From Patescibacteria group bacterium (GTDB lineage Bacteria; Patescibacteriota; Patescibacteriia; UBA9934), in NCBI GenBank assembly GCA_041660165.1, contig JBAZWW010000002.1:132074-196073 (forward strand): 64,000 bases of DNA, written 5' to 3'. The notes under the pieces are model-generated. The model saw nothing but the letters and a program-made list of their open reading frames with translations. It was not told the DNA's origin and ran no database searches. The position numbers were made by a program, and so were the translations under genes. Positions 3,821 through 62,291 of the stretch are shown piece by piece; the stretch's first letter is position 1, and each line of letters starts with the position of its first letter.

Positions 3821-3844
3821 ATCTCACTCACTTTCTCACTCTCG

Positions 3845-3853
3845 TGTTATAAT
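3845..3853 (+). promoter_or_regulatory. Extended -10 element TGTTATAAT lying 9 nt before the ATG at 3863 (candidate leaderless transcript)
   Basis: Sequence motif only. Confidence 0.3.
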
Positions 3854-3862
3854 CACACCGCT

Positions 3863-27552: not shown

Positions 27553-27561
27553 ATTTTGCGC

Positions 27562-29283: not shown

Positions 29284-29291
29284 AGATTTTT

Positions 29292-31343: not shown

Positions 31344-31350
31344 ATTTGTA

Positions 31351-33087: not shown

Positions 33088-33092
33088 AGATT

Positions 33093-34823: not shown

Positions 34824-34826
34824 AGG

Positions 34827-35822: not shown

Positions 35823-35870
35823 AAGCCAAGTTATTCCTGGCTATTATAACATCAAAAAATGCCCGCCTAG

Positions 35871-37232: not shown

Positions 37233-37235
37233 AAT

Positions 37236-38798: not shown

Positions 38799-38800
38799 AA

Positions 38801-39436
38801 TTATTTGAGGATAGCGTCTATGGCGCGTTTGAGAACGCTGGTGGACAGATCGCCCGAATAGCGGACGTTATTGAGATAGATGGTTGGCGTGGTAGTTATT
38901 TGCAGGAGCGTGCCTTCATCATAGCCCCTTTGGACAAGCGGGAGCGTTTCTTGGCTCGTGAAGCACCGGCTGAACTTATTCACATTCAGTTTGAGGTCCG
39001 TGGCAATTTTTGTATAGAGGTCCGTGCCAAGGAGCGACTGATTCATCATGAGGGCCGAATGAAATTCCCAGAACTTTTTTTGCTTTTCCCCGCATCGGGC
39101 GGCAATGGCGGAAGAAATTGCTTCACCATGCGCGCCGGAGTTCGGCATATCCTTCCACACAATCCGCAGTTTATCCCCATACTGATCGCGCAGATCTTTG
39201 AGGGTGGACTCGAACAAGGCGCAGGCTTGGCACTGATAGTCTCCGTAGTTCACAATAGTGACCGGTGCATTTTGTGGTCCAAGCGAAGGATCAGCAATAG
39301 TAATCTCCGGAACGGTAGGCGCTTGCTTGTCCGTGAAGGTGATGTGGTTTCTGACGGGAAGCGAGAGAATGAAAAAAACAAAGATGACCGCTGTTACTCC
39401 CGCCAAGATGGCAAATCCCTGCCAGAAGTATTTCAT
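38801..39436 (-). CDS. DsbA/BdbD-family thiol-disulfide oxidoreductase, membrane-anchored
   Basis: N-terminal TM helix and thioredoxin CQAC active site. Confidence 0.75.
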   Translation of the reverse strand: MKYFWQGFAILAGVTAVIFVFFILSLPVRNHITFTDKQAPTVPEITIADPSLGPQNAPVTIVNYGDYQCQACALFESTLKDLRDQYGDKLRIVWKDMPNSGAHGEAISSAIAARCGEKQKKFWEFHSALMMNQSLLGTDLYTKIATDLKLNVNKFSRCFTSQETLPLVQRGYDEGTLLQITTTPTIYLNNVRYSGDLSTSVLKRAIDAILK

Positions 39437-39438
39437 AG

Positions 39439-40662: not shown

Positions 40663-40666
40663 ACAT

Positions 40667-41566
40667 TTATGAAGGAATATGGGAAATAATGACGGTTGCA
40701 ATTGGTCCAAAGCCAGGGAAAAAATCGTATACTTTCTGTGCGGTCAGAACAATGGAAATAAAGATGAAGAGGAGAATGGTGACGGCTACCATGGCCATGA
40801 TGGCTTCAAACAGGAAATAGGCAAAGTCTCCCGGTTCTTTGAGCGGATGGTATGGCGGGACAATGGTGTGAATGAACGTTTTAGCGGCAGATTTTGCTAG
40901 CTGGTTTTTCACGAAGTCCTTGCGGGATTCGTAGCGGGACTGCTTTGTCTGCTGATATTGTTGGAGGAAGGAAGGCTCAATTTCTTCGGGAACAAGAATG
41001 GTGACCGCACCGCGCAGAAGGTCATAGGTGTAGGAAATAAAGAACGTGATCCAGCCGTCTTCTCCCGGCGCGTCTAATGCGTTTGCTCCGTGGCCGATGA
41101 TCTTCGCTGCCCAGCGCGTAAGTTTTTTTGTGCCTTCTTTTGCCATTTTTTGCGCCTGTTCTTTTGCCTGTTCTCCGGCTCGTTGCCCGGCCTGATTGGC
41201 TGCCTGCTTCAGCCGTCCCCGGATTCCGCCCAGCTGTGAAACGCCAAGATTGCGGGATTCATTTCTGAGTGATTGTTCCTGGCCAGCCAGAGTGTCCATG
41301 GCCGATTCTTCACCTCCGGTTGGGCCAGTTGGAATAGTCAAAGAAGAGCGGGCCAGCTCCGCCATTTTATAGCGTTGTCGTTCTGCTGACCACTTATTTT
41401 CTGGTGGAAGGTTTTGTTCGGCTTGGATAACGTTTCCCGGAAGATCCTCGCTAATGCTGGGCGCATCTTGAAGCTGTGCTTGAGACCTGGCGGCCACTTG
41501 GCTTTTATGCAAAATATCCGCGGCTGTCCGCGGGTCAAATGCTTGGGCTGTGGCCACACTCGCCAT
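40667..41566 (-). CDS. Hypothetical protein with a C-terminal TM helix (299 aa)
   Basis: ORF with a Gln/Ala-rich N-terminal half and a hydrophobic C-terminus. Confidence 0.55.
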   Translation of the reverse strand: MASVATAQAFDPRTAADILHKSQVAARSQAQLQDAPSISEDLPGNVIQAEQNLPPENKWSAERQRYKMAELARSSLTIPTGPTGGEESAMDTLAGQEQSLRNESRNLGVSQLGGIRGRLKQAANQAGQRAGEQAKEQAQKMAKEGTKKLTRWAAKIIGHGANALDAPGEDGWITFFISYTYDLLRGAVTILVPEEIEPSFLQQYQQTKQSRYESRKDFVKNQLAKSAAKTFIHTIVPPYHPLKEPGDFAYFLFEAIMAMVAVTILLFIFISIVLTAQKVYDFFPGFGPIATVIISHIPS

Positions 41567-41574
41567 ATAGGCGA

Positions 41575-47999: not shown

Positions 48000-49070
48000 A
48001 TGATAAAGAAATTGCAAGAACTAGAAACAGAATGTCTCAAAGCATTTTCGAGCATCTCAACTTCCGCCGAACTTGAGGCTTCTCGGGTCGCTTATTTGGG
48101 ACGCAAGGGTAGACTCGCAGACATCCTGGCTGATCTGCCGAAATTGTCGAACGACGAAAAGCGTTCGGCCGGCCAGAAGGCCAATGAAGTGAAGTCGGCT
48201 ATTGAGGGAGCATTTGAGGCGGCCGTGGCGCGCATTGACTCGGCCCAATCCGCCAAGCGCGCAGAAAAAGAGTGGCTGGATATTTCTCTGCCAGGTTCAG
48301 AGCCGTCAGTCGGCCATCTTCATTTGACAAGTCAAGCGATTGAGGAAATTTCGGATATTTTTTCCCGCCTTGGTTTCGTTCGCGCTCGTCACCCCGAAGT
48401 AGACTGGGATTATTATGCGTTCGAATCCTTGAACATGCCGAAGGACCATCCCGCTCGGGATGATTGGGAAACGTTTTTTGTCGAGGGTGAAAATAATCGC
48501 GTGGCCGAGGGAGAAAAAGGCAAAATCGTGCTCACTCCGCACACCAGCAACGCGCAGGTGCGGGAGATGGAAAAGGGGCAGTTGCCGATCCGCATGATCA
48601 ATATCGGTAAGTGCTACCGCCGGCAATCAACGGCCAGACATCTGACCATGTTCCATCAGTTTGAAGGATTGGTAATTGACAAAACGGCGACCGTTACAGA
48701 ACTCAAAGGGGTGTGCGATTATTTTGCGAAAGCTTTTTTTGGCGAGGGCCGGGTAACTCGTTTACGCCCCTACCATTTCCGTTTTACGGAGCCGAGTTTT
48801 GAGCTCGATGTCTCGTGCGCCGTGTGCGATGGTTCTGGTCTCGTTGCCGGGGCGAAATGCAAGCTGTGCAAAGGCGGTTGGCTTGAGCTCGGCGGAGCCG
48901 GCATGGTGCATCCAAATGTTTTGAAAGCCGGCGGACTCAATCCGAAAGAGTATCAAGGTTTCGCTTTCGGTTGGGGTGTCGAGAGAACCGCCATGATGCG
49001 TTCCGGTCTGAACATTGATGATATTCGGATCATGTATAAGAATGATCTGAGATTCCTCCAGCAATTTTAG
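48000..49070 (+). CDS. pheS: Phenylalanine--tRNA ligase alpha subunit
   Basis: Class II aaRS motifs and the FGWGVERTAMM region; 356 aa. Confidence 0.9.
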   Translation: MIKKLQELETECLKAFSSISTSAELEASRVAYLGRKGRLADILADLPKLSNDEKRSAGQKANEVKSAIEGAFEAAVARIDSAQSAKRAEKEWLDISLPGSEPSVGHLHLTSQAIEEISDIFSRLGFVRARHPEVDWDYYAFESLNMPKDHPARDDWETFFVEGENNRVAEGEKGKIVLTPHTSNAQVREMEKGQLPIRMINIGKCYRRQSTARHLTMFHQFEGLVIDKTATVTELKGVCDYFAKAFFGEGRVTRLRPYHFRFTEPSFELDVSCAVCDGSGLVAGAKCKLCKGGWLELGGAGMVHPNVLKAGGLNPKEYQGFAFGWGVERTAMMRSGLNIDDIRIMYKNDLRFLQQF

Positions 49071-49090: not shown

Positions 49091-49193
49091 TATCCTGAGC
49101 GAGAGCGAAGGATCCGACTCCTCGGGCGTAGCCCTACGGGCGAGCCTCACCGGTGAAAGTCGGACTCTTCGCATGGCTCAGAGTGGGACCATT
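49091..49193. repeat. Copy B of the palindromic repeat family (intergenic between pheS and pheT), carrying an extra nested hairpin insert
   Basis: ATCCTGAGCGAGAGCGAAGGATCCGAC ... CTCACCGGTGAAAGTCGGACTCTTCGCATGGCTCAGAGTGGGACCATT. Confidence 0.7.
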
Positions 49194-49206
49194 CACCAAT
49201 CTTTCT

Positions 49207-51615
49207 ATGAACATCCTCGCCTCATATAACTGGATCTGCGAATACCTCGATACAACATTGTCGGCGGACGAATTTGCCAAGGAGCTTTCGCTGAAGTCCA
49301 TGTCCGTTGAGAAAATCGACAAGCTGGGCGATAAGTTTGACCACATGGTGGTGGGCCTCATCAAAGAAATCAAAACGCACCCAAATGCGAACAAGCTTCG
49401 TATTGCCGTGACTGATATTGGCGAGAAGACGGTTGAGATCGTGTGCGGAGGATCGAACCTCGAGGTCGGTCAACGCGTGTTCGTCGCTCTCCCCGGTGCC
49501 AAGGTGAAATGGCACGGCCAAGGCGAGGATATCATCCTCGCAGAGGCTGAAATTCGCGGAGTTAAAAGCATCGGCATGATTTGTGCGCCTGCGGAAGTGG
49601 GATTTGACAAACTGCCAGCGGGCGAGCACGAAATTTGGGATCTCTCAGCGGTTACGAACGCGAAGGCCGGTACTCCGATCGTTGAAGCGCTTGAGCTCAA
49701 CGATACAATTTTCGACATTGAAATCACTACGAACAGACCCGACTGCATGAGTATCATTGGCCTAGCCCGTGAAGGCGCCGCCGTGGTAGATGGGCGTTCC
49801 CCCTCTTTCCAAGAGGGGGCTACGGGGGAGTCTCAGGGTGGCCTCGACGTCAAACTCGAATCCTCAAAGTGCTCCCGCTACATGACGGCTACGGTGAAGA
49901 ACGTCAAAGTTGGCCCTTCGCCATGGTGGCTTCAGAAGAAACTTTTGCTCGCCGGCCACAGACCGATCAATAACATTGTTGATATTACGAATTTAGTTTT
50001 GCACGAGTACGGCCAACCGCTTCATGCATTTGACTCGGCAAAAATCCACGGCGGAAAAATTATTGTGCGCGAGGCCATGAAAGGGGAGAAGCTCAAGGCG
50101 CTGGACGGCAAAGAATACGAGTTGTCTCGTAAGAACCTGATCATCGCGGACGCAGAGGGAGCTCTCGCCGTGGCCGGTGTGATGGGCGGACTCGAGTCCG
50201 GAACGTCGAACGCGACCACGACGGTCATTTTCGAGTCAGCCACATTTGACGCCGTGTCCGTTCGCCGGACGGCAAGAGATTTGAACCTTTACTCGGACTC
50301 CCAGCTCGTTTTCGAAAAGGGTCTCTCGACCGAAGCTTTGCCGAGTGCGTTGGCACGAGCGGTCGAACTCGCAAAAGAGATTGCGGGCGGTACACTCGAC
50401 GGAGTAACTGATGCTCAGCCAAAGCCGTACAAGCATCGAACGTATAAGACCTCGACCAAAAAGATTCGCGCGCGGATCGGCGTGGAAATTTCTGACGAGG
50501 AGATCGAGAAGATTTTGTCGAAACTTGGCTTCGCACTCGAAAAGAAGGGACATGTCATCACAGCCACGGTGCCGTACTGGAGAGATCATGACATCGAGTC
50601 GGAAATTGACCTGACCGAGGAAGTTGCGCGCATTTACGGCTATCACCGCATGCCATCCCGGCTTCCCGCCATTCAACCGCCGGCCGCGGTGAATGATGTT
50701 TCGCTCTCGTGGGAGCGCTCGCTCAAACGCGCGCTGGCAGGACTTGGCTATACGGAATTTTTCGGCTTATCGCTCGTTGATGCAAAGGATCTGGAGCACT
50801 ATGGCCTTTCGCCCGTTGATGCGATCAAGCTTTTGAATCCGCTGACGGAGGATTTGAGCTACCTTCGCCCTTCGCTCATGCCGTCGCTTTTGAAGAGCAT
50901 CGAAAGAAACCAAGCAAACGTCCCCTCGGCCCGTGTTTTCGAACTCGCTCGAGTGCACATGGCGTCTGTCATCCCGAGTGACAACGAGGGATCTGCATTG
51001 CCCGACGAACGCCTGCGCCTGGTCATCGCGGAATTCGGCTACGACAGCGCAGAGTCAGCCTTCATGCATCTCAAAGGAACATTGTCAGAGCTTGGCCGGA
51101 ACACCGGCGTCAGCTTCACGCTCAAGCGCGTAGATGACGAACCGCATTATCACCCCGGTCGTTCGGCGAGTATCCATGCCACGAGTGCAGGCGCTAGCAT
51201 CATTGCCGGTTCCATGGGCGAGCTTGCCCCGGAGTTCGCGCGAGCATTCGGCCTCGCGGGTTCGGTGTTCGTGATCGATCTTGATCTCGAAGCGCTCATC
51301 CCGCATATGCGCAAGAGCCTGCGCTATGAACCCATGGGCGAGTTCCCAACCTCCCGTCGAGACCTGTCATTTGTGGTGAACGAGCGCACGGCGTATGAGG
51401 ATATTGTGACAGCTATCAAGACTCCCTTGCTCTCAGACACCGCACTCGCTGACATTTACCGCGGGGCCGGCGTAGATGACGGCAAGAAATCCCTCACGCT
51501 TTCTCTGACCTTTGGCTCTCTTGATCGCACCCTCACCGGCGAGGAAGTAGAAACGGCCATCAAGGCTATCATTGTTACCCTTGAGGGCAAATTCGGCGCA
51601 GTGTTGCGCGGGTAG
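49207..51615 (+). CDS. pheT: Phenylalanine--tRNA ligase beta subunit
   Basis: Start at MNILASYNWICEYL (canonical PheT N-terminus), followed by tRNA-binding, B3/B4, B5 and FDX-ACB domains in order. The ORF track starts 54 nt upstream. Confidence 0.9.
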   Translation: MNILASYNWICEYLDTTLSADEFAKELSLKSMSVEKIDKLGDKFDHMVVGLIKEIKTHPNANKLRIAVTDIGEKTVEIVCGGSNLEVGQRVFVALPGAKVKWHGQGEDIILAEAEIRGVKSIGMICAPAEVGFDKLPAGEHEIWDLSAVTNAKAGTPIVEALELNDTIFDIEITTNRPDCMSIIGLAREGAAVVDGRSPSFQEGATGESQGGLDVKLESSKCSRYMTATVKNVKVGPSPWWLQKKLLLAGHRPINNIVDITNLVLHEYGQPLHAFDSAKIHGGKIIVREAMKGEKLKALDGKEYELSRKNLIIADAEGALAVAGVMGGLESGTSNATTTVIFESATFDAVSVRRTARDLNLYSDSQLVFEKGLSTEALPSALARAVELAKEIAGGTLDGVTDAQPKPYKHRTYKTSTKKIRARIGVEISDEEIEKILSKLGFALEKKGHVITATVPYWRDHDIESEIDLTEEVARIYGYHRMPSRLPAIQPPAAVNDVSLSWERSLKRALAGLGYTEFFGLSLVDAKDLEHYGLSPVDAIKLLNPLTEDLSYLRPSLMPSLLKSIERNQANVPSARVFELARVHMASVIPSDNEGSALPDERLRLVIAEFGYDSAESAFMHLKGTLSELGRNTGVSFTLKRVDDEPHYHPGRSASIHATSAGASIIAGSMGELAPEFARAFGLAGSVFVIDLDLEALIPHMRKSLRYEPMGEFPTSRRDLSFVVNERTAYEDIVTAIKTPLLSDTALADIYRGAGVDDGKKSLTLSLTFGSLDRTLTGEEVETAIKAIIVTLEGKFGAVLRG

Positions 51616-51633: not shown

Positions 51634-51945
51634 ATGTTGGGAACCCAAGACATCCTCTTCATCGTTCTCGCTTTTTGCGCGCTGTGGTTCACGGCCTTTC
51701 TTTGCTGGTTGTTATTCCAAGCGGCCAGTTTGCTCAAGCGCCTGCATGGCTTAGTTGATGAAGTCAAAGTAAAAATTGATGAACTCCAGCAGTCCATTGT
51801 TGGCATGAAGCGTAAGTTTGACGGCAACGTAGCCCTCATCACCGGCATTGCCGATGGTGTTCGCAGAATCATGGAAGCGCTGAAAGCCATGGACGGGATG
51901 GGGAGAAAAAAGACGTACAAGAGCGAAGATGAGGAGATGATGTAA
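51634..51945 (+). CDS. Small membrane protein with a coiled-coil C-terminal half (hypothetical)
   Basis: 103 aa with an N-terminal TM helix. Confidence 0.5.
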   Translation: MLGTQDILFIVLAFCALWFTAFLCWLLFQAASLLKRLHGLVDEVKVKIDELQQSIVGMKRKFDGNVALITGIADGVRRIMEALKAMDGMGRKKTYKSEDEEMM

Positions 51946-51953
51946 ACTCTGGC

Positions 51954-52358
51954 ATGTTAAAGCAAGATGAACTACTGGATCTAGCGAAGACTCGGTTCGC
52001 TGAGGCGCGTGTGCTTCATGAAAACGGCAAGCATGACGGCGCCGTCTATCTTTGCGGTTATGCGATTGAGCTGGCCTTAAAATGGGTTATTTTGAAAGAC
52101 AAACTTTGGGGATTTCCTGATGAACCGGAAGAGTTCAAGCTATATGAAGAAGTAAAAACGCATGACTTAGAAAAGTTGCTGACTATTGCAAATAGACAAC
52201 AAATGCAGAATGATAGAGTATTCTCCATACCTTGGGGGTATATCAAAAACTGGAGATCGGAGTTTCGTTATCGGCCGATTGGCATGGTCAAAGAGGTAGA
52301 CTCTTCCCAAATGTTGTCATCTGTGGATGCTATCATGAAAGCGCTTGGAGTAGCCTAA
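51954..52358 (+). CDS. HEPN-like domain protein
   Basis: AVYLCGYAIELALK and THDLEKLL resemble HEPN helices. A canonical Rx4-6H motif is not evident. Confidence 0.4.
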   Translation: MLKQDELLDLAKTRFAEARVLHENGKHDGAVYLCGYAIELALKWVILKDKLWGFPDEPEEFKLYEEVKTHDLEKLLTIANRQQMQNDRVFSIPWGYIKNWRSEFRYRPIGMVKEVDSSQMLSSVDAIMKALGVA

Positions 52359-52359
52359 T

Positions 52360-52740
52360 ATGGATCAGTTGATGAAAGATAAATTGCAGAAGATAGCGTT
52401 AGCCCTCGAATCAACGAAGGGAGAATTAAAATTGCTTGCCTGCGTTTGGAGGGATGATGTAAAAAAATGGGATATTTTGGTCAGTGCTAATTGGATTAAT
52501 TACAGCAAACTTCAAGAAGATATTGGGGTTATTTTTGACGAGTTTAAAAAGGAATTCAATGGGGAATTCGCTCTTCGTTTTTCAGGAATTTTTCCGTTGT
52601 CAACTACTGAACCCTTCGTGAATCAAATAACTCAACTGATTTCTGTTACTTCCGGAACCGTCGAACTTAAGGAGATACGCATCGGGGAGGTAAAAGTTGA
52701 TAAGATCGCCCTGATTGTTTCGAGGCCTGTTGTGGCTTAA
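52360..52740 (+). CDS. Hypothetical protein translationally coupled to the HEPN-like gene; possibly a degenerate nucleotidyltransferase-like partner
   Basis: The start lies 2 nt after the preceding stop. There is no GS...D.D motif; only a KKWDILVSA stretch. Confidence 0.4.
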   Translation: MDQLMKDKLQKIALALESTKGELKLLACVWRDDVKKWDILVSANWINYSKLQEDIGVIFDEFKKEFNGEFALRFSGIFPLSTTEPFVNQITQLISVTSGTVELKEIRIGEVKVDKIALIVSRPVVA

Positions 52741-53005
52741 CGGTTGGTGGTAAAAATATGTTTACAGGCATTTTTTCAGCATTACGCCCAGCATCCGCTG
52801 GAGGTTCAAGCGACTTTTCCAAATTCTTCCGAGAGGCATCTTCCCGTGAAAAGAAGAGAGTCTTTTTGGACGTCGCTAGAAAGGCAAGCAAAGAACAGCG
52901 GGACGTCATCCAAGCCTCTCAGAGAACACGTTAGAAAAAAAGCAGTCCTGCCAGAGATGGCTGGGCTGTTTATTTTTTTGTCCGAATATGGCACAGTAGC
53001 CCTAT

Positions 53006-56000
53006 ATGCTGACGCCAGAAAAAGCACAGATTGCCGTAAATGAGTACTTTTCTGCGTTGGCAGAGAAATTTCGTACAGGACAGGCGCGCGAGCACGCGTA
53101 CAGGCCAGTGCTTGAGAAATTGATGAAGGACCTTGATCAGTCGCTGAACGTTTTGAATGATCCGGCCAGAAGCGAGCACGGAAATCCCGACTTCATCTTT
53201 TTACGCGGTGACATCATGGTGGGTCATGCTGAGACAAAGGATATTGGCGTATCGCTCAGTAAGACAGAGAACTCCGAACAGCTCAGTCGTTATTTTGGTT
53301 ATGCGAACCTTTATCTCACGGACTATCTGGAGTTTCGGTTCTTCAAAAATGGCGCCAGATCAAACGAACCCATTGTGATCGGGACGATCAAAGACGGCCA
53401 GCTCGTGGCTCATCCTGAGCGCTTTGCTGAGCTAGCCACTGCGTTGGCCGATTTCGTGCAGGGCAAGCCTCAGCCCATCAAAAGCGGGAAACGACTCGCG
53501 GAAATTATGGGTGGCAAGGCCCGCCGGCTTCGGGACAATGTCCAGCAGTTTCTTGGGACTGAGTCTGAGAAGAACGCGGAGCTGATGCGTATTTATGAGA
53601 CGATCAAGAAACTTCTTGTTCATGATCTTTCCATAGAAAAGTTTGCGGATATGTACGCTCAGACGCTTGTCTACGGCCTCTTTGTGGCCCGTTACAATGA
53701 CAACACGCCGGAAAACTTTTCACGCCAGGAAGCGCGCGAGTTAGTTCCTGAAAGCAATCCCTTTTTACGCGAATTTTTTGACCACATTGCCGGCACTCGT
53801 TTTGATAAGCGTCTGGGCTTCATTGTAGATGAGCTCTGCGCAGTTTTTACGGTCAGCGATTTGAAGGAAATTGTTCACAGGCATCTCAAGGTAGAAGAGG
53901 ACGGAAAGGATGAGAAGGATCCCATCATCCATTTCTACGAAGATTTTTTGCACGAGTACGATCCGGCAGAGCGCAAGAAAATGGGCGCGTACTACACTCC
54001 GCTTCCCGTTGTCCGTTTCATTGTCCGCGCGGTTGATGAGGCGTTAAAGCGTGATTTTGGCTTGCCCAAGGGTTTGGCTGACACCTCAAAGCGCAAAGTG
54101 ACTGTTACGACTCAGGGCATGAAGCCAAAAGAAGTGGAGATACACCGCGTGCAAATCCTTGATCCCGCCGTTGGTACCGCTACGTTCTTGAATGAAATCA
54201 TTAAGCACGTGGCTAAGGATTTTAAGGGCCAGGAAGGACGCTGGTGTTCCTACGTGGAATCTGACCTCATGCCCCGTCTTCACGGGTTTGAGCTCATGAT
54301 GGCTCCCTACACGATCGCTCACCTCAAGCTAGCGATGACCCTGCAGGAAGCCGGTTGCGGTCATCTCAATCAGCGCCTTGGCGTTTATCTCACAAACACC
54401 CTTGAAGAAGGTGTGAAAGTTGATGACACTCTCTTTGGTCTTGGCCTCTCAGATGCCATCGCCAAAGAAGCCGAAGCTGCCGGCAAAATCAAGCACGAAA
54501 AACCCATCATGGTCATTGTCGGCAACCCGCCGTACAGCGGCGAGTCTTCAAACAAAACCGATTACGCCATGAGTCTTGTGGCGAAATATAAATTCGAGCC
54601 GGGCGGGAAAGAAAAGCTCAAGGAACGCAACCCAAAATGGATCAATGACGATTACGTTAAGTTTATCGCCTTTGCGGAAGACATGATTGAGAAAACCGGC
54701 GAGGGCATTGTGGCCATGATCACAAACCACGGCTACCTCGACAACCCCACCTTCCGCGGTATGCGTTGGCACCTCGCCGAGACATTCGACAAACTTTACA
54801 TTTTGGATTTGCACGGGAATGCCAAGAAGAAAGAGACTTCTCCGGATGGAAGCAAGGATGAGAACGTATTCGCGATTCAACAGGGAGTGTCAATCATCGT
54901 GGCTGTTAAAACAGGTAAGAAAAAGATTGGTGCTCAGGCCGCGGTCATGCACGCGGATCTTTTTGGCACACGGGTGAATAAATTCTCAACACTGAATGAA
55001 GATCGTATTTGTTGGATAGAAATTAAGCTTGATGAGAAGTTTCTATTCTTTGCTAATAAAAATACTGAGGGTAAGGAAGAATACGACCGAGGGATATCAA
55101 TCACCGACCTCTTTCTGGAAAACAGTGTCGGCATTGTTACTGGACGAGACGAACTGACGATTGATTATTCCCGAGAGGATCTCTGGAGAAGGGTTCAAAG
55201 ATTCGCCGATCTTGACGTTGAGGACGCTAGATCAGAGTTCCATCTTGGAAAAGACGCGCGTGATTGGCAGGTAGATCTGGCGCAGAAGGATATCAGAAGT
55301 AACTTCTCTGAAACGAAATTAGAGTCGATATATTATCGGCCATTCGACGTTCGTTGGACGTATTACACCGGCAACTCTCGTGGGTTCTATTGTTATCCGC
55401 GGTACGAAGTCATGCAACATTTTTTGAAAGGGGAGAATGTTGGACTTGATATTTGTCGTCAAAATATCTCGCAAGAATTTTCTCATGTTTTTGTTACTGA
55501 CAGAATCGCCGATGACTCGTATGTATCCAATAAATCCCGTGAGCGCGGATACGTGCTTCCGTTGTTCATCTATCGAGAAGACGGCGAGCGAGTAGCTAAC
55601 TTTGATCCGGAAACAATCAAACAATTCACGGCGAGTTTAGAAGAGTTATTTGACCCGGAAAATGTATTGGATTATATCTACGCAATTTTGTACAGTCCCG
55701 CCTACAGGACAAAGTACATGGAATTCTTGAAGACCGACTTCCCTCGGGTTCCCGTGCCAGAGAACGACAAACAGTTCCACGCACTTGCAGAGTTCGGCAA
55801 ACAATTACGAGAGCTTCATCTGCTCACATCGCCCAAGGTACATGATTTCATCACCACGTATCCCAAGGAGGGATCAAATCTTGTAGAAAAGCTAGCGTAT
55901 AAAGACGGGAACGTCTGGATCAATGCCAACCAGTACTTTGGCGGTGTGCCGGAGATAGCTTGGAACTTCTACATTGGTGGTTATCAGCCAGCTCAGAAGT

Positions 56001-56140
56001 GGTTGAAAGACAGAAAGGGAAGAGCGCTTGAGAATAAAGACATTGAGCATTATCAACAGATGATCGTGGCATTGGCAGAGACCGATAAGATTATGAAGGA
56101 AATTGATACGGTTGCTTTTGTCAGGCTGAACACAGTATGA
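53006..56140 (+). CDS. Fused N-terminal PD-(D/E)xK endonuclease plus gamma-class N6-adenine DNA methyltransferase with a C-terminal target-recognition region (MmeI-family Type IIL / PglX-like)
   Basis: N-terminus NPDFIFLRG...GHAETKD (D...ExK), MTase motif I ILDPAVGTATFL, motif IV VIVGNPPYSG; 1044 aa. Confidence 0.75.
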   Translation: MLTPEKAQIAVNEYFSALAEKFRTGQAREHAYRPVLEKLMKDLDQSLNVLNDPARSEHGNPDFIFLRGDIMVGHAETKDIGVSLSKTENSEQLSRYFGYANLYLTDYLEFRFFKNGARSNEPIVIGTIKDGQLVAHPERFAELATALADFVQGKPQPIKSGKRLAEIMGGKARRLRDNVQQFLGTESEKNAELMRIYETIKKLLVHDLSIEKFADMYAQTLVYGLFVARYNDNTPENFSRQEARELVPESNPFLREFFDHIAGTRFDKRLGFIVDELCAVFTVSDLKEIVHRHLKVEEDGKDEKDPIIHFYEDFLHEYDPAERKKMGAYYTPLPVVRFIVRAVDEALKRDFGLPKGLADTSKRKVTVTTQGMKPKEVEIHRVQILDPAVGTATFLNEIIKHVAKDFKGQEGRWCSYVESDLMPRLHGFELMMAPYTIAHLKLAMTLQEAGCGHLNQRLGVYLTNTLEEGVKVDDTLFGLGLSDAIAKEAEAAGKIKHEKPIMVIVGNPPYSGESSNKTDYAMSLVAKYKFEPGGKEKLKERNPKWINDDYVKFIAFAEDMIEKTGEGIVAMITNHGYLDNPTFRGMRWHLAETFDKLYILDLHGNAKKKETSPDGSKDENVFAIQQGVSIIVAVKTGKKKIGAQAAVMHADLFGTRVNKFSTLNEDRICWIEIKLDEKFLFFANKNTEGKEEYDRGISITDLFLENSVGIVTGRDELTIDYSREDLWRRVQRFADLDVEDARSEFHLGKDARDWQVDLAQKDIRSNFSETKLESIYYRPFDVRWTYYTGNSRGFYCYPRYEVMQHFLKGENVGLDICRQNISQEFSHVFVTDRIADDSYVSNKSRERGYVLPLFIYREDGERVANFDPETIKQFTASLEELFDPENVLDYIYAILYSPAYRTKYMEFLKTDFPRVPVPENDKQFHALAEFGKQLRELHLLTSPKVHDFITTYPKEGSNLVEKLAYKDGNVWINANQYFGGVPEIAWNFYIGGYQPAQKWLKDRKGRALENKDIEHYQQMIVALAETDKIMKEIDTVAFVRLNTV

Positions 56141-56304
56141 CGCCCGATGAAATAAAAGAAAAACGAGCAGAGTTTCTCCGATTAACGCGTCAAGCCCAAG
56201 AAATAAGGGACCGTCTTATTGCGCGTGCTGAAGTGTTGATGAAGGAGCTGGATATTTCTTTTGATGAGGCGCTGAACTATATTCGGAATGTGGACACAAA
56301 GTAG
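56137..56304 (+). CDS. Small ORF (55 aa, MTPDEIKEKRAEFLRLTRQAQEIRDRLIARAEVLMKELDISFDEALNYIRNVDTK) overlapping the MTase stop in ATGA fashion
   Basis: Translationally coupled small ORF found by my own translation; it is below the ORF-track cutoff. Confidence 0.3.
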   Translation: MTPDEIKEKRAEFLRLTRQAQEIRDRLIARAEVLMKELDISFDEALNYIRNVDTK

Positions 56305-56352
56305 CGAATGGTGCTTTGTGTGGTTACGCTAGCTACTTAGTTGGAACGTGGT

Positions 56353-57993
56353 TTAGAATGTTGGGTCGGGCATCATGCCTGTCGCCGGCGATTTTAGTTC
56401 GCGCCAGATAGCCACCATGGCGTAAGTGTCACGCCCGCAGTATTTTCTCAAATTTTGGGAGATTTTCATTTTTTCTTCTTGAGAGATAGAGCCGTAAATC
56501 ATTTCATACCAAGCTTCGATAGCTTCTACGCCATTTTGAATTTCTAGTTCCTTGTAGGTCAGAGAGGGTACCATTACGGGCAGAACATTCTTGATCGATG
56601 TTTTTCCTCTAAATTCGGGATGGACGTAAAACTGTTTTTGAAAGATGTCTTTCAGATCGTAAATCCTATCGTTGATGTTTTCGAGGTAGTCAGCATAGTC
56701 GGGATTTCTCTCGGCTAATTGAGAGTTGATCATTCGTTCAAAAGGTTTATGCCAGACGATGATCGTTCCTTCTGGTCCGATGGTGTCGTGCAGCTTCTTG
56801 ATAATCGTTAATGAGGGGTCAGAGGCCTCTTCGTGTAGGTACTCAAAATGTTCTAAATCAGCTCCAGGTGTAGGGATCATGTCGAGAGAGAATTGAAATG
56901 GAACCTGTTGATATGGTTTAAAGCCTTTAAAGAGAGGGATAGCCGGAGGGTAACTTTCGTAGTCGAGAAAAAATAAGGGGAATGACAACGAAGCAAGCTC
57001 TACTCTGATGGCGATGGGGTCGATGATTGATTTCTTCATCTTGTGGACGGTGACCTGATTCTTTTGGATATCAGAGAGTTTAAAATCCTCAGGGACGTCA
57101 TTCAGATCAAAGATGCCCGATTCGACTAGAGATTCTAACTTCTTTTTGCTTAGGCCGATGCGCGATAAATCATGAACGGAGTAAGGGGGAACTTGTGGAT
57201 GAGAATAATTAAACGTACTGCAATGCGAGCTACGACCTGCAAAGAGACATTCGCATGTTAACGCCTTTTCATCTGTCTGGGTGAGCGCGAGCTTCGCTTT
57301 TTGCATGTTATCTCGTGTTGCGACGAGCCTCGTATGGACCTTATCCGTGACATCATCACACACGAACAGTTCGGCGGCATTTATAGTGTCCCCGCGTGCA
57401 TATTCTTTATTGAGATGGATGATGAAGATGCGACCTAGTTTTATGCCAGCGTCTTCTACGACAACAGCTTGAAAGGCGGCGTCCTCTACATGATCTCTGC
57501 CATCCTCCTTTTCATTCATGGAGTTTGTGCCCTTCACCTCGTGGAGATCCCAACAGTCATTTATGGCGTCGTAAGCTAAAACATCATTGCGTACCAAGAA
57601 TCCGTCATAGATAAAGGTTGCCTGGAAAATAACGGGAGTCTTTTTATCCACGAGCACCTTTGTTACCTGCGCCGCATATTCTCCTGCGCTCTCGATTAGC
57701 GTGCCATCAGGAAAAAGTTTCCGTGCCCATTCTTCGACAAGGTTGCCTTTTGCTAGGAGGCTTAGCTCGAACTCAGACAAAGTAAACATTGATTGAAGCT
57801 CTGGCTTATAGAGCTTGAGCCAAGTATTTTTACCACAGGCCAGGAACTCGAGATAGAGGGTCTTAGTAATGTAGTTCATATACCCAGCCATATTTAAAGC
57901 CATCGGTTTGGCGTTTTCCAGAAGATACGCGTCCAACAATATTTTTATCTGGCTTGGAATAAAGCAAGCCGACTTGTCGGGTTTTGAGTCCAA
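56353..57993 (-). CDS. Putative PD-(D/E)xK-family nuclease domain protein with a C-terminal Cys cluster
   Basis: N-terminal FQATFIYDGFLVRNDVLAYD...DLHEVKG (D-x(n)-ExK) and a later C-x-C...C cluster. The start is probably at an internal Met, because the track ORF overlaps the SNF2 gene end by 131 nt. Confidence 0.45.
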   Translation of the reverse strand: MDSKPDKSACFIPSQIKILLDAYLLENAKPMALNMAGYMNYITKTLYLEFLACGKNTWLKLYKPELQSMFTLSEFELSLLAKGNLVEEWARKLFPDGTLIESAGEYAAQVTKVLVDKKTPVIFQATFIYDGFLVRNDVLAYDAINDCWDLHEVKGTNSMNEKEDGRDHVEDAAFQAVVVEDAGIKLGRIFIIHLNKEYARGDTINAAELFVCDDVTDKVHTRLVATRDNMQKAKLALTQTDEKALTCECLFAGRSSHCSTFNYSHPQVPPYSVHDLSRIGLSKKKLESLVESGIFDLNDVPEDFKLSDIQKNQVTVHKMKKSIIDPIAIRVELASLSFPLFFLDYESYPPAIPLFKGFKPYQQVPFQFSLDMIPTPGADLEHFEYLHEEASDPSLTIIKKLHDTIGPEGTIIVWHKPFERMINSQLAERNPDYADYLENINDRIYDLKDIFQKQFYVHPEFRGKTSIKNVLPVMVPSLTYKELEIQNGVEAIEAWYEMIYGSISQEEKMKISQNLRKYCGRDTYAMVAIWRELKSPATGMMPDPTF

Positions 57994-60900
57994 GTCTAGT
58001 CTTGACTTGGATGCACGCGGCTACACATTGCCCATTGGGAGACAGCTGCGCAGACTCAACTTCGCAGTTTCCACCTCCGATCGCTAAGGTTGCCTTTTCG
58101 GCTATTTCCTTCCAGGATTCTTGCTCCTCACTCGTTCTCTGTATCCCTCCTAGTAGGCGGACAAGCGATTCAAGACGAAACGGTGCCTCCGCTGTCATAT
58201 ATTCGGAACGGATATCCAATCCCGTCAGGTAACAGCTTCTTAAGTCGTTAGGGTGTGATGGCTTTCCACTCCAAGCGCATAGCCTAGCTTCGATGGGAGT
58301 ACAGAACTTTCCATCTACCGATCTTATGGCTTCCGTTTCTAGTAAACGAACTGACGACAGGCTACTGGAGACAAATAGTTTCTTTAATGCCAATTTGCCT
58401 GAAACCGCAGATTTTTCGAGTTCCGCAGGCATTACTTTTTTGCCTGTCACCCCGCATATCTCCAGAATACCGGGCATTACTATCTTGCCGGTCATTTCGC
58501 ATATTTCAGCTTCTCCGGGAAGGAGTTTTTGATTTGTTTCTGCGCAAGAAATAAACTCCTGTATATGTCCTTTCTTACCGCTTATTACCGAGCGAGCTTG
58601 CTCATCATGTCGGTATGGTTTTCCGGATACTTCACTTGTAGCTGATTCGTTAACAAGCATGTCTGACGAACTAAATACACATTTGATAAATTGATTTGGC
58701 TCGGCTCGTTTGCCACTCACCGCAGATGTCAAAAGCATCTCGGTAACTACATTCTTTCCTGTGGTATCGGACTTCGTCATCTCGCTCAAGAGGGCGCGTT
58801 TATTTGTCAGGGAGCAGATCCCTATGTGTTCCGGAAGGGCAAGTTTTCCACTTATTTCGGAATTGCTTAGCAGGTGACGGAGAACTCGCACGTTACTGAC
58901 CTGGCATGTTTCTAGGCATTCGATCGGAACATTGGAGCCAGTCTGAGTACATGAGCCCATCTCAGGTACGACAATAGCGCCACTGGATGGAGTCACTGAG
59001 ATGGAACTTGAGTATTCGAAGGTATTTCCAATCTTGTATCGAATGTTGAAATCAAGAAGTCTTTGCACCGTCCCACTAAGACCGACCAATGTGATCTCAA
59101 CTCTTGGGGTGAGGTCATCCTGAATCTTCTTCTTTCTGTATTCACTCGCTCCTGCCGCAGGGAGTTCTTGAGTTAGTCGTTCACGATAAAAGCGGCCAAA
59201 TTCTGTAACACCCGGGTCAAGTAGTGCTTTCGATACTACGTAATCTGGGACAAGTCCGATGGCGGAGGGGTTTTGGAATACATCACTAATCGGCTCGAGA
59301 CCAGGCCGCCCGATGCTCTTTTTATGTTCCTGGGGAGTGCACTCGACTTCTACGAGTCGCTCGTAGCTGTCATGGGCGACTGTGGTACGTATGAGTAACA
59401 AAACCGTACCTTCGTAGTTCCGCCAAACATCTGTGAGACTCAAATTGCTAGACGTCGCACCAAATCCTTCCACCCACTTTTTAGCGATTTCTTGTGCCTG
59501 AGGAAGAGGGTCTTTATCGATATCTCGAATTTGGTGTTTGCCGTATTTAGCGATCTTATCTGCAAGTTTTTGAAAGGCGGGAGTGCCCTGGGAATAGGTC
59601 GTGGCGGTAATTCCAGTACTGTCGTTGAAGTTGATTAATTTATTTTCACCGTCAAGCGACAGCTCAAATTGTCCAGACGGCTTCTCTACAAGGTCAGCAC
59701 CAAGGCTATTCAAGCCTGACATCACAAAACTACGTTCGTCGATAGAGTACGAAATTGGTGGCAGCTTTGGGCTTAGGGGACCAGAGTCGTCAGAACCATT
59801 GCTGCCAAGAGTCGCATTGATTGTTTCTTCATCGCGTTCTAGTTGGAGTTTGGCTTCAGCTATGTTTTTCTCAGCCAGACGAGTCGCAGCCTCTATGTTC
59901 TTTCCAGCCAGAGACGCGCCAACCAACTTAAGAATTTTGTCCTCTAGGCTTTCACCTTCTTCGCCCATGCCCGCCGCTTCCAATAACGCCTCCACATCGC
60001 CGACTGCATGAGATGCCATCTGCAATTTCTCCAATAGCCTCGCGACAATATATTCTTCAAATGTTCCCTCAAGAACCATGTTAAATATGCAGACGCTGGA
60101 ATGCTGAGATCCAAGGCGTTGTACACGACCAATACGCTGTTCAACAATCATTGGATTCCAGGGGAGATCGTAGTTAACCAGAACATTGGCCGCTTGGAGG
60201 TTGACGCCCTCCGACCCCGCCTCAGTAGAAACGATAACGTGAATTTCTGGAATGTCCTTTTTAAACTTCGCGATTGTCTCTTGGTTCCTTGGCCCCGACG
60301 TCCCGTTGATAAGCCCGCATGTAATCTTTTTATCGGAAAGATGTTCAGCAATGACAGCCTGAGTTTCTTTTCTACAGGTAAAAATAACGACTCTCCATTT
60401 GTCAGGATTCTCAGCCCTTAGCTTCTCGATGAGGGTAGAAAGACCGTGAAGTTTTGCTGTTGTACCGATACGATTCACGACCTCACGAACGTCCACGGCT
60501 AGTGGCTTCTCGATAGTTTGATTTATTGCCATGTTTTCTAGTTGCACGGCTAGGGCTTGGGGGCTGCTGACGAGGGCTTGAGCAATCGAGATTTGACTGA
60601 GACGATTCATTTTTGAGAACTCCTTTTCAATAAGAGAGAAGAGTTCGTCTTCTTCCGCTGTCGGTCTTACCTTGTATAGCTCTACCTTTCGATCTGGAAA
60701 ATCTAAATCGGCGTCTGCGCGCCGAAAGCGAGACATGTAGCTATAAACGATGCTACGGAATTCGTCTCTTTTTTCCGGTTTTAGTTTTCTAGCTTGTATC
60801 TGGTCACCTTCGATAAATTTCCGAGCAAAAGAGCTTTCGCTCCCGAAAGGATTCTCGTGTCCTCGCGCTCCAGTGAGCAAATCAACGAGTGAATAGAGAT

Positions 60901-61585
60901 CCCACAGGCGATTTTGAATTGGAGTGGCCGTGAGCATCAATACGTACCTGAAGAGTCGGTCGGTTAGGGCTTTCTTGAAACGCTTGGCTACTTCTGGCGG
61001 TTTCTCGGTACCGAAAAGATTACGTAATTTATGAGCTTCATCGAGGATGAGCATGTCAAAACCCATCTCGCCTAATTCATCTAAGTATTCCCTGGCTGAA
61101 TGGTAGGTAGTGATGAGAGCGCCTCGGTCTTCTGGAAGTTCGACCTTGAGAATCTTAGAACCCGTTTCTCCTATGCTCGAAATGGCAAATTTAGTCTCGA
61201 GTTCCTCCTTCCACTGAGGGATGAGAAGTTTAGGGCACACAACTAAGACCTTATTAACCCTTCCTCTGGCCATGAGTTCACTGACCACTAGGCCGGCGCT
61301 AATGGTTTTTCCAAGACCCACGTCGTCAGCGAGAAGAGTCACCGGTAACCGACGACAAAAATTCATCAGATTCGAAACCTGATGGCGGTATGGTTTGATC
61401 AGTTCTTTCCAGACTCTTTTGGATCGGAGATCTTCCGGCTTATCTATGATGATCGGGGCTATAAGTCCGTACTCCAGAGCTGCACGATATAGTTTGTACT
61501 CGGCGTCGCTAGTTGCTAGTCGCAATGTTTTAGTTTGGAAGGACGGCTTCGAAGAATCCATACTATAAATGAGACCCTTCATCAA
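57863..61585 (-). CDS. SNF2-family helicase (1240 aa) with a ~600-aa C-terminal extension that includes about 10 tandem degenerate 13-17-aa SGK repeats
   Basis: SNF2 N-terminal motifs LADDVGLGKT and ILDEAHKLRN (DEAH), LMLTATPIQN, and helicase-C STEAGSEGVNLQ...QRIGRVQRLGS. The repeats are of the form SEISGK, TTGK, AVSGK, EVSGK, VISGK, MTGK, VTGK, AVSGK, VDGK, WSGK. Confidence 0.8.
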   Translation of the reverse strand: MMKGLIYSMDSSKPSFQTKTLRLATSDAEYKLYRAALEYGLIAPIIIDKPEDLRSKRVWKELIKPYRHQVSNLMNFCRRLPVTLLADDVGLGKTISAGLVVSELMARGRVNKVLVVCPKLLIPQWKEELETKFAISSIGETGSKILKVELPEDRGALITTYHSAREYLDELGEMGFDMLILDEAHKLRNLFGTEKPPEVAKRFKKALTDRLFRYVLMLTATPIQNRLWDLYSLVDLLTGARGHENPFGSESSFARKFIEGDQIQARKLKPEKRDEFRSIVYSYMSRFRRADADLDFPDRKVELYKVRPTAEEDELFSLIEKEFSKMNRLSQISIAQALVSSPQALAVQLENMAINQTIEKPLAVDVREVVNRIGTTAKLHGLSTLIEKLRAENPDKWRVVIFTCRKETQAVIAEHLSDKKITCGLINGTSGPRNQETIAKFKKDIPEIHVIVSTEAGSEGVNLQAANVLVNYDLPWNPMIVEQRIGRVQRLGSQHSSVCIFNMVLEGTFEEYIVARLLEKLQMASHAVGDVEALLEAAGMGEEGESLEDKILKLVGASLAGKNIEAATRLAEKNIAEAKLQLERDEETINATLGSNGSDDSGPLSPKLPPISYSIDERSFVMSGLNSLGADLVEKPSGQFELSLDGENKLINFNDSTGITATTYSQGTPAFQKLADKIAKYGKHQIRDIDKDPLPQAQEIAKKWVEGFGATSSNLSLTDVWRNYEGTVLLLIRTTVAHDSYERLVEVECTPQEHKKSIGRPGLEPISDVFQNPSAIGLVPDYVVSKALLDPGVTEFGRFYRERLTQELPAAGASEYRKKKIQDDLTPRVEITLVGLSGTVQRLLDFNIRYKIGNTFEYSSSISVTPSSGAIVVPEMGSCTQTGSNVPIECLETCQVSNVRVLRHLLSNSEISGKLALPEHIGICSLTNKRALLSEMTKSDTTGKNVVTEMLLTSAVSGKRAEPNQFIKCVFSSSDMLVNESATSEVSGKPYRHDEQARSVISGKKGHIQEFISCAETNQKLLPGEAEICEMTGKIVMPGILEICGVTGKKVMPAELEKSAVSGKLALKKLFVSSSLSSVRLLETEAIRSVDGKFCTPIEARLCAWSGKPSHPNDLRSCYLTGLDIRSEYMTAEAPFRLESLVRLLGGIQRTSEEQESWKEIAEKATLAIGGGNCEVESAQLSPNGQCVAACIQVKTRLGLKTRQVGLLYSKPDKNIVGRVSSGKRQTDGFKYGWVYELHY

Positions 61586-61820: not shown

Positions 61821-62291
61821 ATGAGCACATTAAACGTTGGCGACAAAGCACCGGAGTTCTCGCTCCCCGATCAAAACGGCACGGTTCACAGCCTCGCCCA
61901 AAATAAGGGGAAGTGGGTTTTGTTGTATTTCTATCCCAAGGACATGACGCCGGGCTGTACGGTTGAGGCTTGTGAGCTTAGAGATGCCTGGCAGGATTTT
62001 GCGAAAGTTAATGCGGTAGTTTTCGGCGTCAGTGCAGACTCGGTGAAGAGCCACAAGAAGTTTGAAGAGAAGCACTCTCTGCCGTTTCCAATTCTTTCGG
62101 ATGAGGACAAGACAGTCATCAATGCCTACGGCGCCTGGGGCAAGAAGAAATTCATGGGACGGGAGTATGAGGGGATTTACCGCTGGTCGTTTTTGATAAA
62201 TCCCACAGGGATGATTGAGAAGATTTACAAAGACGTGAAGCCAAAAGAACATGCGCGGGAGGTGCTTAAAGATTTACACGCCGGCGTATGA
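61821..62291 (+). CDS. bcp: Thiol peroxidase Bcp/PrxQ (peroxiredoxin)
   Basis: FYPKDMTPGCT peroxidatic-Cys motif; 156 aa. Confidence 0.85.
   Translation: MSTLNVGDKAPEFSLPDQNGTVHSLAQNKGKWVLLYFYPKDMTPGCTVEACELRDAWQDFAKVNAVVFGVSADSVKSHKKFEEKHSLPFPILSDEDKTVINAYGAWGKKKFMGREYEGIYRWSFLINPTGMIEKIYKDVKPKEHAREVLKDLHAGV

Follow-up and report, generated by a model that had tools for sequence, protein, structure and literature searches.

The window analysed here is a 64,000-nt stretch from the genome of a Patescibacteria group bacterium (GTDB lineage Bacteria; Patescibacteriota; Patescibacteriia; UBA9934), taken from GenBank assembly GCA_041660165.1 (contig JBAZWW010000002.1, positions 132,074 to 196,073 of the forward strand). 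Between pheT and bcp it carries a segment of ~10 kb that, as the initial annotation stated, is made up of non-housekeeping genes, many of them of defence type; its G+C content is low. The segment is best read as a mosaic, acquired by horizontal transfer, of three conflict-type modules that are independent of one another, and not as one system. The modules are a HEPN cassette, a Type IIG/IIL restriction-modification (RM) enzyme and an operon made up of a SNF2-family ATPase gene and a DUF2779 nuclease gene. They are considered independent because each was found separately elsewhere, and the earlier idea of one combined system was given up for this reason. The SNF2-nuclease operon is the main subject of this report, and its features are listed below (ORF, open reading frame; CTD, C-terminal domain).

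57863..61585, minus strand: SNF2-family ATPase, ORF of 1240 aa (Pfam SNF2-rel_dom and Helicase_C)
59816..61408, minus strand: SNF2 ATPase core, aa ~60-590, to which all Pfam, PDB, PADLOC and NCBIfam matches are confined
57866..59788, minus strand: SNF2 CTD, aa ~600-1240, with a coiled coil, alpha/beta domains with long strands, a hairpin-repeat array and a terminal beta domain
58181..58978, minus strand: ~17 tandem 15-aa beta-hairpin repeats within the CTD, aa ~870-1135, with the core [CS]xx[ST]GK and motif spacings of 15 or 30 aa
56353..57879, minus strand: DUF2779 dual nuclease, 508 aa, with an N-terminal Cas4-like PD-(D/E)xK domain with 4 conserved Cys and a C-terminal RNase-H-fold DEDD(y) 3'-5' exonuclease domain

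Both genes run in the same direction on the minus strand as an operon (61585-56353), and the end of the SNF2 gene, stop codon included, extends 17 nt into the start of the nuclease gene. The same 17-nt overlap is found in the closest relatives (loci L085, L086 and L087), whose nucleases are 73-76 % identical to that in the window, and the SNF2 and nuclease genes are translationally coupled. The initial annotation had described the pair as divergently oriented, but both genes are in one operon that is convergent with the RM gene. It had also listed the nuclease as a 546-aa protein. The assignment as a PD-(D/E)xK nuclease stands, but the start is the ATG at 57879 and not the TTG at 57993 (the listed ORF overlapped the SNF2 gene by 131 nt), and the protein is 508 aa long, as is a database copy (P0001) that is 100 % identical. 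The SNF2 protein probably starts at M9 (ATG 61561), because its homologues begin at residue 8-9 of the window protein.

In the SNF2 protein, SNF2-rel_dom (4.8e-31, 108.4 bits) and Helicase_C (5.5e-19, 68.9 bits) both score above their cut-offs, and the Walker A motif (GLGKT, aa 90) and the DEAH motif (aa 182) are intact. The top profile matches of the core are to defence helicases, namely BrxHI/II (2e-58), DrmD (4e-57) and HmaA (3e-51), with RapA at 6e-36, and the best PHROG is phrog_62 ('DNA helicase', 1e-78).

The 640-aa CTD has no Pfam match and no convincing fold match among solved structures. In an AlphaFold model of the SNF2 protein (pLDDT 85.9), the parts of the CTD follow one another in the order given above, the strands of the alpha/beta part are very long, and the hairpin array appears as a repeated 'EE------EE-HHH' pattern. 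A search with the CTD alone recovered 129 proteins, and the full-length ones, from unrelated phyla, are 47-55 % identical to the window SNF2 protein over ~1,170 aa. When a CTD profile was searched against 1.84 billion representatives, 1284 clusters (at 50 % identity) were recovered, 406 of them at E<=1e-30. These relatives (P0246-P0393) range in length from 1230 to ~2100 aa, and 2-11 stretches of each match the profile. Because the lengths and the matched stretches differ, the number of hairpin repeats varies, with the array expanding and contracting between lineages. The distribution of the CTD is extremely patchy, with ~120 relatives found among 185,579 species genomes (~0.06 % of species) at 40-55 % identity and spread over many phyla. 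None were found in IMG/VR (2.9 million contigs), among the INPHARED phages or among the PLSDB plasmids.

The nuclease matches Pfam DUF2779 (PF11074) at 3.2e-40 (137.7 bits; cut-off 23.3), and the match takes in the whole profile (positions 1-126 of 126). In an alignment of 44 sequences, the PD-(D/E)xK residues D99, E114 and K116, together with Q137, are invariant, as are the cysteines C15, C209, C211 and C220 and the DEDD-type residues D306, E308, D408, Y480 and D484. The ATPase motifs of the SNF2 protein and both predicted active sites of the nuclease are intact. The AlphaFold2 model of the nuclease (pLDDT 91.5) retrieved Cas4 (7mi4 and 4r5q, probability 1.0), MGME1 and the exonuclease domain of DinG in a Foldseek search, and the sequence itself has no match in the PDB. 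The nuclease belongs to no PHROG family and has no match among isolated phages, and homologues were found on 12 IMG/VR contigs. In Patescibacteria, DUF2779 is well conserved (>100 clusters, 52-76 % identical).

DUF2779-type proteins have been predicted to be 3'-5' exonucleases with a PD-(D/E)xK-like DUF83 domain (PMC3985635), and the Mycoplasma homologue in JCVI-syn3.0, MMSYN1_0389, has been described as a Cas4-like protein with an MrfB-like DEDDh part and reported to be quasi-essential (PMC13621843). The Cas4-like plus DEDD architecture, the catalytic residues and the Cys cluster are common to the window nuclease, Cas4/DUF2779 proteins, COG2251 proteins (PDDEXK_1 plus RNase_H_2) and MMSYN1_0389. 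Unlike Cas4, the window nuclease has no CRISPR association, and an operonic SNF2 partner such as that in the window is described in neither of these papers. More generally, no description of a SNF2/DUF2779 gene pair was found in the full-text literature (searched for DUF2779, for COG2251/TM0106/PF13482 and for Snf2 with Cas4-like antiphage).

Conservation of the pair was surveyed from the SNF2 side using one genome per species (185,579 species), and 80 loci with 10-kb flanks were kept. Gene calls in the loci are our own ORF picks and many contigs are short, which makes the counts of absence upper bounds. A nuclease homologue, either of the DUF2779 type or of the PDDEXK_1 plus RNase_H_2 (COG2251) type, was identified with jackhmmer in ~27 of ~78 distinct SNF2-CTD loci. 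It is mostly the immediate neighbour on the same strand, upstream or downstream of the SNF2 gene, and the gap between the two ranges from -58 to +60 nt. Nuclease-bearing loci come from Patescibacteria, Nitrospirota, Acidobacteriota, Alpha-, Beta- and Gammaproteobacteria, and Ignavibacteriota. In Pfam scans of the nearest neighbours, the nuclease was the sole family that recurred in more than a few loci (10 upstream, 12 downstream); DUF2130, superfamily 1 (SF1) helicases and AAA_23 occurred ~3 times each. The window SNF2 protein and the window nuclease have their nearest relatives in the same locus (L078). Pairwise distances of SNF2 proteins and nucleases are correlated (Mantel r=0.33, reached in 0/2000 permutations), though this correlation may in part mirror organismal phylogeny.

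Fusions provide further evidence for the pairing. In a Pyrinomonadaceae metagenome-assembled genome (MAG; L056, 6368-11644), the two proteins are joined in frame in a single 1758-aa polypeptide, with a COG2251-type nuclease at residues 1-530 and a SNF2-CTD protein at residues 538-1754; the latter part is 51.6 % identical to the window protein. Two loci (L025, 2852-6283, and L070, 3742-7155) have, beside the SNF2 gene, a gene for a ~1140-aa fusion of an RNase_H_2-type nuclease and an SF1 helicase (AAA_11/AAA_12), and a ~1140-aa protein encoded beside a third SNF2-CTD gene (L065, 13547-16969) clusters with these fusions. Nuclease, SF1 helicase and SNF2 genes are separate and consecutive in L003. 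The count of ~27 of ~78 loci, the in-frame fusion and the 17-nt overlap shared with the closest relatives bear out the suggestion in the initial annotation that nuclease and SNF2 genes co-occur. Its further suggestion of a separate, undescribed two-gene module also held, in that no PADLOC system matches nuclease and SNF2 as a pair.

Other neighbours in the SNF2-anchored loci include serine recombinases (11/80) and genes for ParB-methyltransferase (MTase) proteins (5/80), and single immediate neighbours match the defence proteins SIR2-HerA, Old/AriA, LmuB, a Type IIG enzyme and a CBASS-type effector (phospholipase). A fusion of a Schlafen-group-3 helicase and Peptidase_S24 (659 aa) lies just downstream of the SNF2-CTD/DUF2779 operon in L120 (10008-11987), and in L086 (8301-9705) a diversity-generating retroelement (RVT_1 plus bAvd) is right behind the SNF2, DUF2779 and serine recombinase genes.

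A second survey started from the nuclease and covered the 80 closest DUF2779 loci from metagenomes; in these, the gene just upstream of DUF2779 alternates between a SNF2-CTD gene, a helicase-nuclease of the PDC-S37/Hhe type and the Type IIG family. An SF1 helicase (DUF4011/AAA_11/AAA_12) is upstream on the same strand in 7/80 loci, mostly directly adjacent, and five of these helicases match PADLOC PDC-S37 (1.6e-283) and Hhe (2.8e-147). Examples are L093 (3409-9500), L103 (3091-9500), L111 (2366-9542), L098 and L140. The longest of these helicases, in L103, has an extra MTES_1575 endonuclease domain, and in L111 a 198-aa ORF separates helicase and DUF2779. These loci suggest either a variable helicase slot before a constant nuclease or a defence hotspot. 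A PIF1-like helicase is downstream of DUF2779 in 4/80 loci. The DUF2779 nuclease thus seems to act either on its own or in combination with several helicases.

Membership of known systems was rejected in each case considered. The cut-offs quoted for DrmD, DpdE, ZorD and RapA are those of NCBIfam curated equivalog models. For DISARM class 1, to which the initial annotation had related the segment, the SNF2 protein scores 206.7 bits against the 610 of the DrmD model NF038317 and 195.3 against the 950 of NF038318, with only the helicase lobes matching, and none of the 15 PADLOC family matches of the RM enzyme is to DrmMI. The relation to DISARM was not upheld. The observation that the DISARM core is absent was correct, as neither Pfam nor PADLOC places DrmA, DrmB (DUF1998) or DrmC (PLD) among the island proteins, and the lone DrmA match is a partial one to the SNF2 core (7e-35). 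For BREX, there is no PglX, PglZ or BrxC match for island proteins, and the BrxHI/II match of the SNF2 protein (197 bits) is to helicase motifs only. The PADLOC match to HmaA covers only the C-terminal helicase lobe (aa 334-552, 173 bits), and HmaB and HmaC were not found. ZorD models of Zorya match the helicase core only (131 bits with PADLOC; 73 bits against 1500 with NF041790). The SNF2 protein also falls short of DpdE of the Dpd system (176 bits against a cut-off of 500) and of RapA (NF003426, 124 bits against 576).

There are, however, likenesses to several of these systems. As in DISARM class 1, a SNF2-family helicase adjoins a large N6-adenine MTase in a defence island, but in the window the MTase is a complete Type IIG restriction enzyme, and DrmA, DrmB and DrmC are absent. 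ZorD (SNF2 plus an Mrr-like nuclease) likewise couples a superfamily 2 (SF2) motor to a nuclease, the two being fused in ZorD. MrfA, the helicase of the MrfA-MrfB repair pair, is not a SNF2 protein. The MrfA-MrfB pair (helicase and DEDDh exonuclease) resembles the window pair in having an SF2 motor and a nuclease as two genes, a comparison made from the literature alone (PMC13621843). HmaA is a SNF2 helicase with a C-terminal PD-(D/E)xK nuclease and alone protects against T4, and in both DISARM and Hma a SNF2 helicase is combined with an MTase (PMC11232893). The window shares with Hma a SNF2 motor, a nuclease of the PD-(D/E)xK superfamily, a defence-island setting and a nearby MTase. It differs from Hma in that the nuclease is a separate protein (fused solely in L056, and there N-terminal), is Cas4-like and has an additional DEDD exonuclease domain; the SNF2 CTD is also different, and the DUF1156 MTase (HmaB) and DUF499 ATPase (HmaC) are missing.

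The remaining genes of the segment and its flanks are as follows.

48000-49070: pheS, flanking gene (Pfam)
49153-51615: pheT, flanking gene (Pfam)
51634..51945, plus strand: 103-aa ORF right behind pheT, the translation having a hydrophobic N-terminus followed by a charged helical stretch
51954..52358, plus strand: HEPN-domain protein (PF05168), 134 aa, gene 1 of a two-gene cassette
52360..52740, plus strand: 126-aa HEPN partner with no known domain, starting 2 nt past the HEPN stop
53006..56140, plus strand: Type IIG/IIL RM enzyme, 1044 aa, a single polypeptide with an N-terminal PD-ExK nuclease, an N6-adenine MTase and a Type-ISP-like specificity domain
56137..56304, plus strand: 55-aa ORF that begins MTPDEIKEKRAEFLRL, its ATG overlapping the RM gene stop codon (ATGA)
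61821-62291: bcp, flanking gene (Pfam AhpC-TSA, 2.5e-42)

The best of the 15 PADLOC families matched by the RM enzyme is REase_MTase_IIG (PDLC03610, 1.4e-302, 1005 bits), and PDLC03631 spans aa 19-1004. Pfam matches are to Type_ISP_C (4e-90), N6_Mtase (9e-12) and Eco57I (2e-6). The closest solved structure is that of the Type IIL enzyme DrdV (7lo5, 1.7e-47), and the MTase and target recognition domain (TRD) parts of LlaBIII and LlaGI are also matched. In the translation, the MTase motif GNPPY is read in 'VGNPPYSGES' and the nuclease motif D...ExK in PDF...AETK ('NPDFIFLRGDIMVGHAETKD'). Nuclease, N6-adenine MTase and TRD are present in one polypeptide with both catalytic motifs, as in Type IIG/IIL enzymes. 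Like DrdV and MmeI, the 1044-aa protein has the nuclease, gamma-class MTase and TRD, and the match is full-length. Unlike the Type ISP enzymes LlaGI and LlaBIII, it has no helicase domain, and the likeness to these is confined to the MTase-TRD part. Judged from its sequence, the protein is a complete, self-contained, single-protein RM system of an already-known kind, and neither PglX nor DrmMI. It would methylate its own site and cut unmodified DNA. The initial annotation had recognized that the MTase carries its own N-terminal nuclease, as Type IIG/IIL enzymes do; of its label 'MmeI/PglX-like', the DrdV/MmeI-like part stands, but the 15 PADLOC families matched include no PglX model.

Relatives of the RM enzyme on other contigs of the candidate phyla radiation are ~50 % identical to it. 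Members of the same Type IIG family, 50-53 % identical, precede DUF2779 on the same strand in 3/80 nuclease-anchored loci (L105, 2372-7093; L168, 1597-6268; L138, 1-6494), and the same family is found in this position on an IMG/VR contig (L176, 2297-9482). None of the four contigs has a SNF2 gene there. A HerA-like 744-aa gene lies between the IIG and DUF2779 genes in L138. The simplest reading of these four contigs may be a shared defence-gene hotspot, with a functional link as the alternative. In the window, the IIG gene and the pair are not one operon, because the IIG gene is convergent with the pair, and the SNF2-nuclease module is probably independent of the neighbouring RM enzyme.

The HEPN protein has a modest match to PF05168 that is above the cut-off (7.1e-9, 36.3 bits against 22), together with matches to PADLOC PDC-M28A (2.2e-5) and phrog_5737 (1e-18). 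No Rx4-6H motif was seen when the 134-aa sequence was read by eye, without an alignment. The 126-aa partner has no match in Pfam, NCBIfam, PADLOC or PHROGs, and no MNT domain. The initial annotation had described the two as a HEPN-like pair; one is a HEPN protein, but the partner is unrelated to it, and a relationship as paralogues was rejected (BLASTP E=2.1). The partner is rare, with 5 matching proteins, including the window's own, in a search of 5.8 billion clusters. In both of the other contexts that were read (L088 and L089), it follows a 134-aa HEPN gene with identical spacing, and RM and SNF2 genes are absent. The HEPN gene and its partner are a toxin-antitoxin-like cassette, a small variation on a known type. 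The cassette resembles HEPN-MNT toxin-antitoxin modules in that a small HEPN protein and a tightly spaced small partner are kept as a unit, but the partner has neither an MNT nor any other known domain and the HEPN gene comes first. In L089 (1-6390) the cassette is again a few genes downstream of pheS-pheT. The L088 copy is at 5594-6402, in a Uhrbacteria MAG in which the dnaE gene upstream of the cassette (1-3883) contains an intein (Intein_splicing plus LAGLIDADG_3).

The ORFs of the pheT-bcp interval are, in order, those of 103 aa, HEPN, 126 aa, 1044 aa and 55 aa, followed by the DUF2779 nuclease and SNF2 genes on the minus strand. The 103-aa ORF has no matches in Pfam, PADLOC, NCBIfam or PHROGs, and may lie outside the island proper. 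The 55-aa ORF is perhaps not a gene, because it has no family match and no homologue across the related loci. The G+C content is 0.43-0.50 across 51.5-61.5 kb, as against 0.52-0.57 in both flanks, which fits acquired DNA. A search for att-like direct repeats around the island gave just short, chance-level matches, and no recombinase, terminase-like or ParB-MTase gene and no second copy of DUF2779 or SNF2 was found within the window. Elsewhere in the window there are eleven consecutive large ORFs of 211-755 aa on the minus strand (25852-43842), and two copies of tRNA-Ser and one tRNA-Arg gene at 20.5-21.7 kb.

SNF2 and nuclease are coupled both physically and in evolution. We tentatively propose, with slightly less than even confidence, that the SNF2-CTD/DUF2779 operon is a helicase-nuclease module that restricts invading mobile DNA (phage or plasmid). 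We favour this reading because of the patchy distribution, the island context and the defence-type occupants of the same slot. It also draws on the operon structure, the recurrent pairing and fusions, the correlated distances, the intact active sites, the serine recombinases, ParB-MTases and matches to defence proteins among the neighbours, and the defence helicases that head the profile matches of the SNF2 core. As to mechanism, we infer that the SNF2 motor would translocate on double-stranded DNA, driven by ATP, with the hairpin-repeat domain of the CTD serving as a sensor or adaptor, and would deliver or activate the partner nuclease. Once there, the nuclease would destroy the target DNA, its Cas4-like domain acting on 5' ends or single-stranded flaps and its DEDD domain degrading 3' ends. 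Such a role would be analogous to those of HmaA and ZorD, which combine a SNF2 motor and a nuclease, of PD-(D/E)xK or Mrr type, in one protein; of the validated precedents, HmaA is the closest.

Several observations weigh against restriction of mobile DNA as the role of the pair. No PADLOC v2 model exists for the nuclease or for the pair. On the SNF2 side, no nuclease could be detected within 10 kb of ~65 % of the SNF2-CTD genes, and the partnership would therefore be facultative or operate in trans; most SNF2-CTD genes have a mixed set of neighbours, often housekeeping genes. On the nuclease side, just 6/80 of the closest DUF2779 loci include a SNF2 gene, and the link is therefore strong from the SNF2 side and weaker from the nuclease side. 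DUF2779 is in housekeeping synteny with dsbA, hisS and dnaG-rpoD in 6-7/80 loci and is also found beside DciA/MreB, and to these is added the quasi-essential status of the Mycoplasma homologue (PMC13621843).

A broader form of the proposal is possible but rather doubtful. It holds that the SNF2-CTD protein and the Cas4/DEDD nuclease are a previously unrecognised anti-phage or anti-plasmid system that extends from Patescibacteria to Proteobacteria, in which the variable hairpin array would be the sensor. DUF2779/COG2251 would be a 'plug-in' effector that the SNF2 protein shares with other helicases, namely Hhe/PDC-S37-like SF1 helicases, PIF1-like helicases and the SF1 fusions.

A serious rival, though in our view the less likely reading, is that the pair is instead a DNA repair or recombination module in the style of MrfA-MrfB or AddAB, in which DUF2779 would be a general DNA-end exonuclease recruited by different helicases and the SNF2 protein would clear or remodel stalled complexes or lesions. 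The conservation of DUF2779 in Patescibacteria, its housekeeping synteny and the quasi-essential homologue all speak for such a module, as does the DEDDh half of MMSYN1_0389, the best match of which is MrfB, an exonuclease of DNA repair (PMC13621843). PIF1 and SF1 helicases are further partners of the nuclease, which also occurs fused to SF1 helicases, and three Bradyrhizobium loci (L043, L044 and L048) have upstream gene clusters in common, an indication that the SNF2 gene is stably inherited with the chromosome. However, the SNF2-CTD is extremely patchy across the many phyla in which it occurs, and it recurs beside serine recombinases, ParB-MTases and transposases. The window copy shares its low-G+C island with an RM enzyme and a HEPN cassette, and the alternative occupants of the slot (Hhe/PDC-S37 and IIG) are self-sufficient defence genes. 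The varying number of CTD repeats would also be unusual for a core repair enzyme.

Also a serious rival, though an improbable one, is that the pair belongs to a prophage-like integrative element of Patescibacteria, serving its replication, recombination, packaging-linked DNA processing or counter-defence, with the window copy as a remnant that has lost the element. Serine recombinases, ParB_N-N6_N4 MTases, a ~495-aa protein with no Pfam match (c15) and a small 130-aa helix-turn-helix protein (c12) recur near DUF2779 in Patescibacteria, and the gene corresponding to c15 in one relative has a weak Terminase_6C match. The c15/c12/ParB-MTase module, to which a large serine recombinase is often added, probably represents a prophage-like element, and c15 is possibly terminase-like. 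The module with serine recombinase is found with DUF2779 in metagenome loci and in 4/12 of the IMG/VR contigs with DUF2779. Loci with the module are L113 (774-3958), L103 (10706-14243), L171, L173, L174 and L179. That the closest relatives of the pair lie beside large serine recombinases, ParB_N, the weak Terminase_6C match, N6_N4 MTases and the diversity-generating retroelement, and that the best PHROG of the SNF2 core is phrog_62, would agree with an element of this type. Against it, the CTD has no relative in IMG/VR, INPHARED or PLSDB, the nuclease has no PHROG family and no match in isolated phages, the window lacks a recombinase, a terminase-like gene and a ParB-MTase, and most SNF2-CTD loci of other phyla lack element markers.

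Finally, the proposal in the initial annotation that the pair reads the methylation made by its neighbour, which would make it a restriction arm coupled to the adjacent Type IIG MTase in the manner of DISARM or Hma, is very unlikely to be correct: it draws on the adjacency of the two in the window, on the four contigs with the same IIG family near DUF2779 and on the combination of SNF2 helicase and MTase in DISARM and Hma (PMC11232893), but a homologue of the window IIG is present in 0/80 SNF2-anchored loci, the recurrent-neighbour lists of the SNF2 family include no MTase family (a lone locus, L033, has a large MmeI-like MTase beside SNF2), the IIG enzyme has its own nuclease, the IIG/DUF2779 loci lack SNF2, and the pair did not qualify as DISARM or Hma. 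The idea is unsupported because no MTase linkage was found for the SNF2 family.

The practical lesson from this locus is that it is a mosaic of independent modules and not a DISARM-like super-system. Its RM enzyme and HEPN cassette are ordinary, and the SNF2-CTD/DUF2779 pair is a fresh variation on the known helicase-nuclease theme. Helicase-nuclease immunity (Hma, ZorD of Zorya, Hachiman and Hhe) is an active field, and if restriction of mobile DNA is indeed the role of the pair, a SNF2 protein that has a new, repeat-bearing CTD and is paired with a two-headed nuclease would be one more architecture of this kind. DUF2779, a family that is conserved in Patescibacteria, reported as quasi-essential in a minimal Mycoplasma and never characterised, would thereby gain its first functional context.

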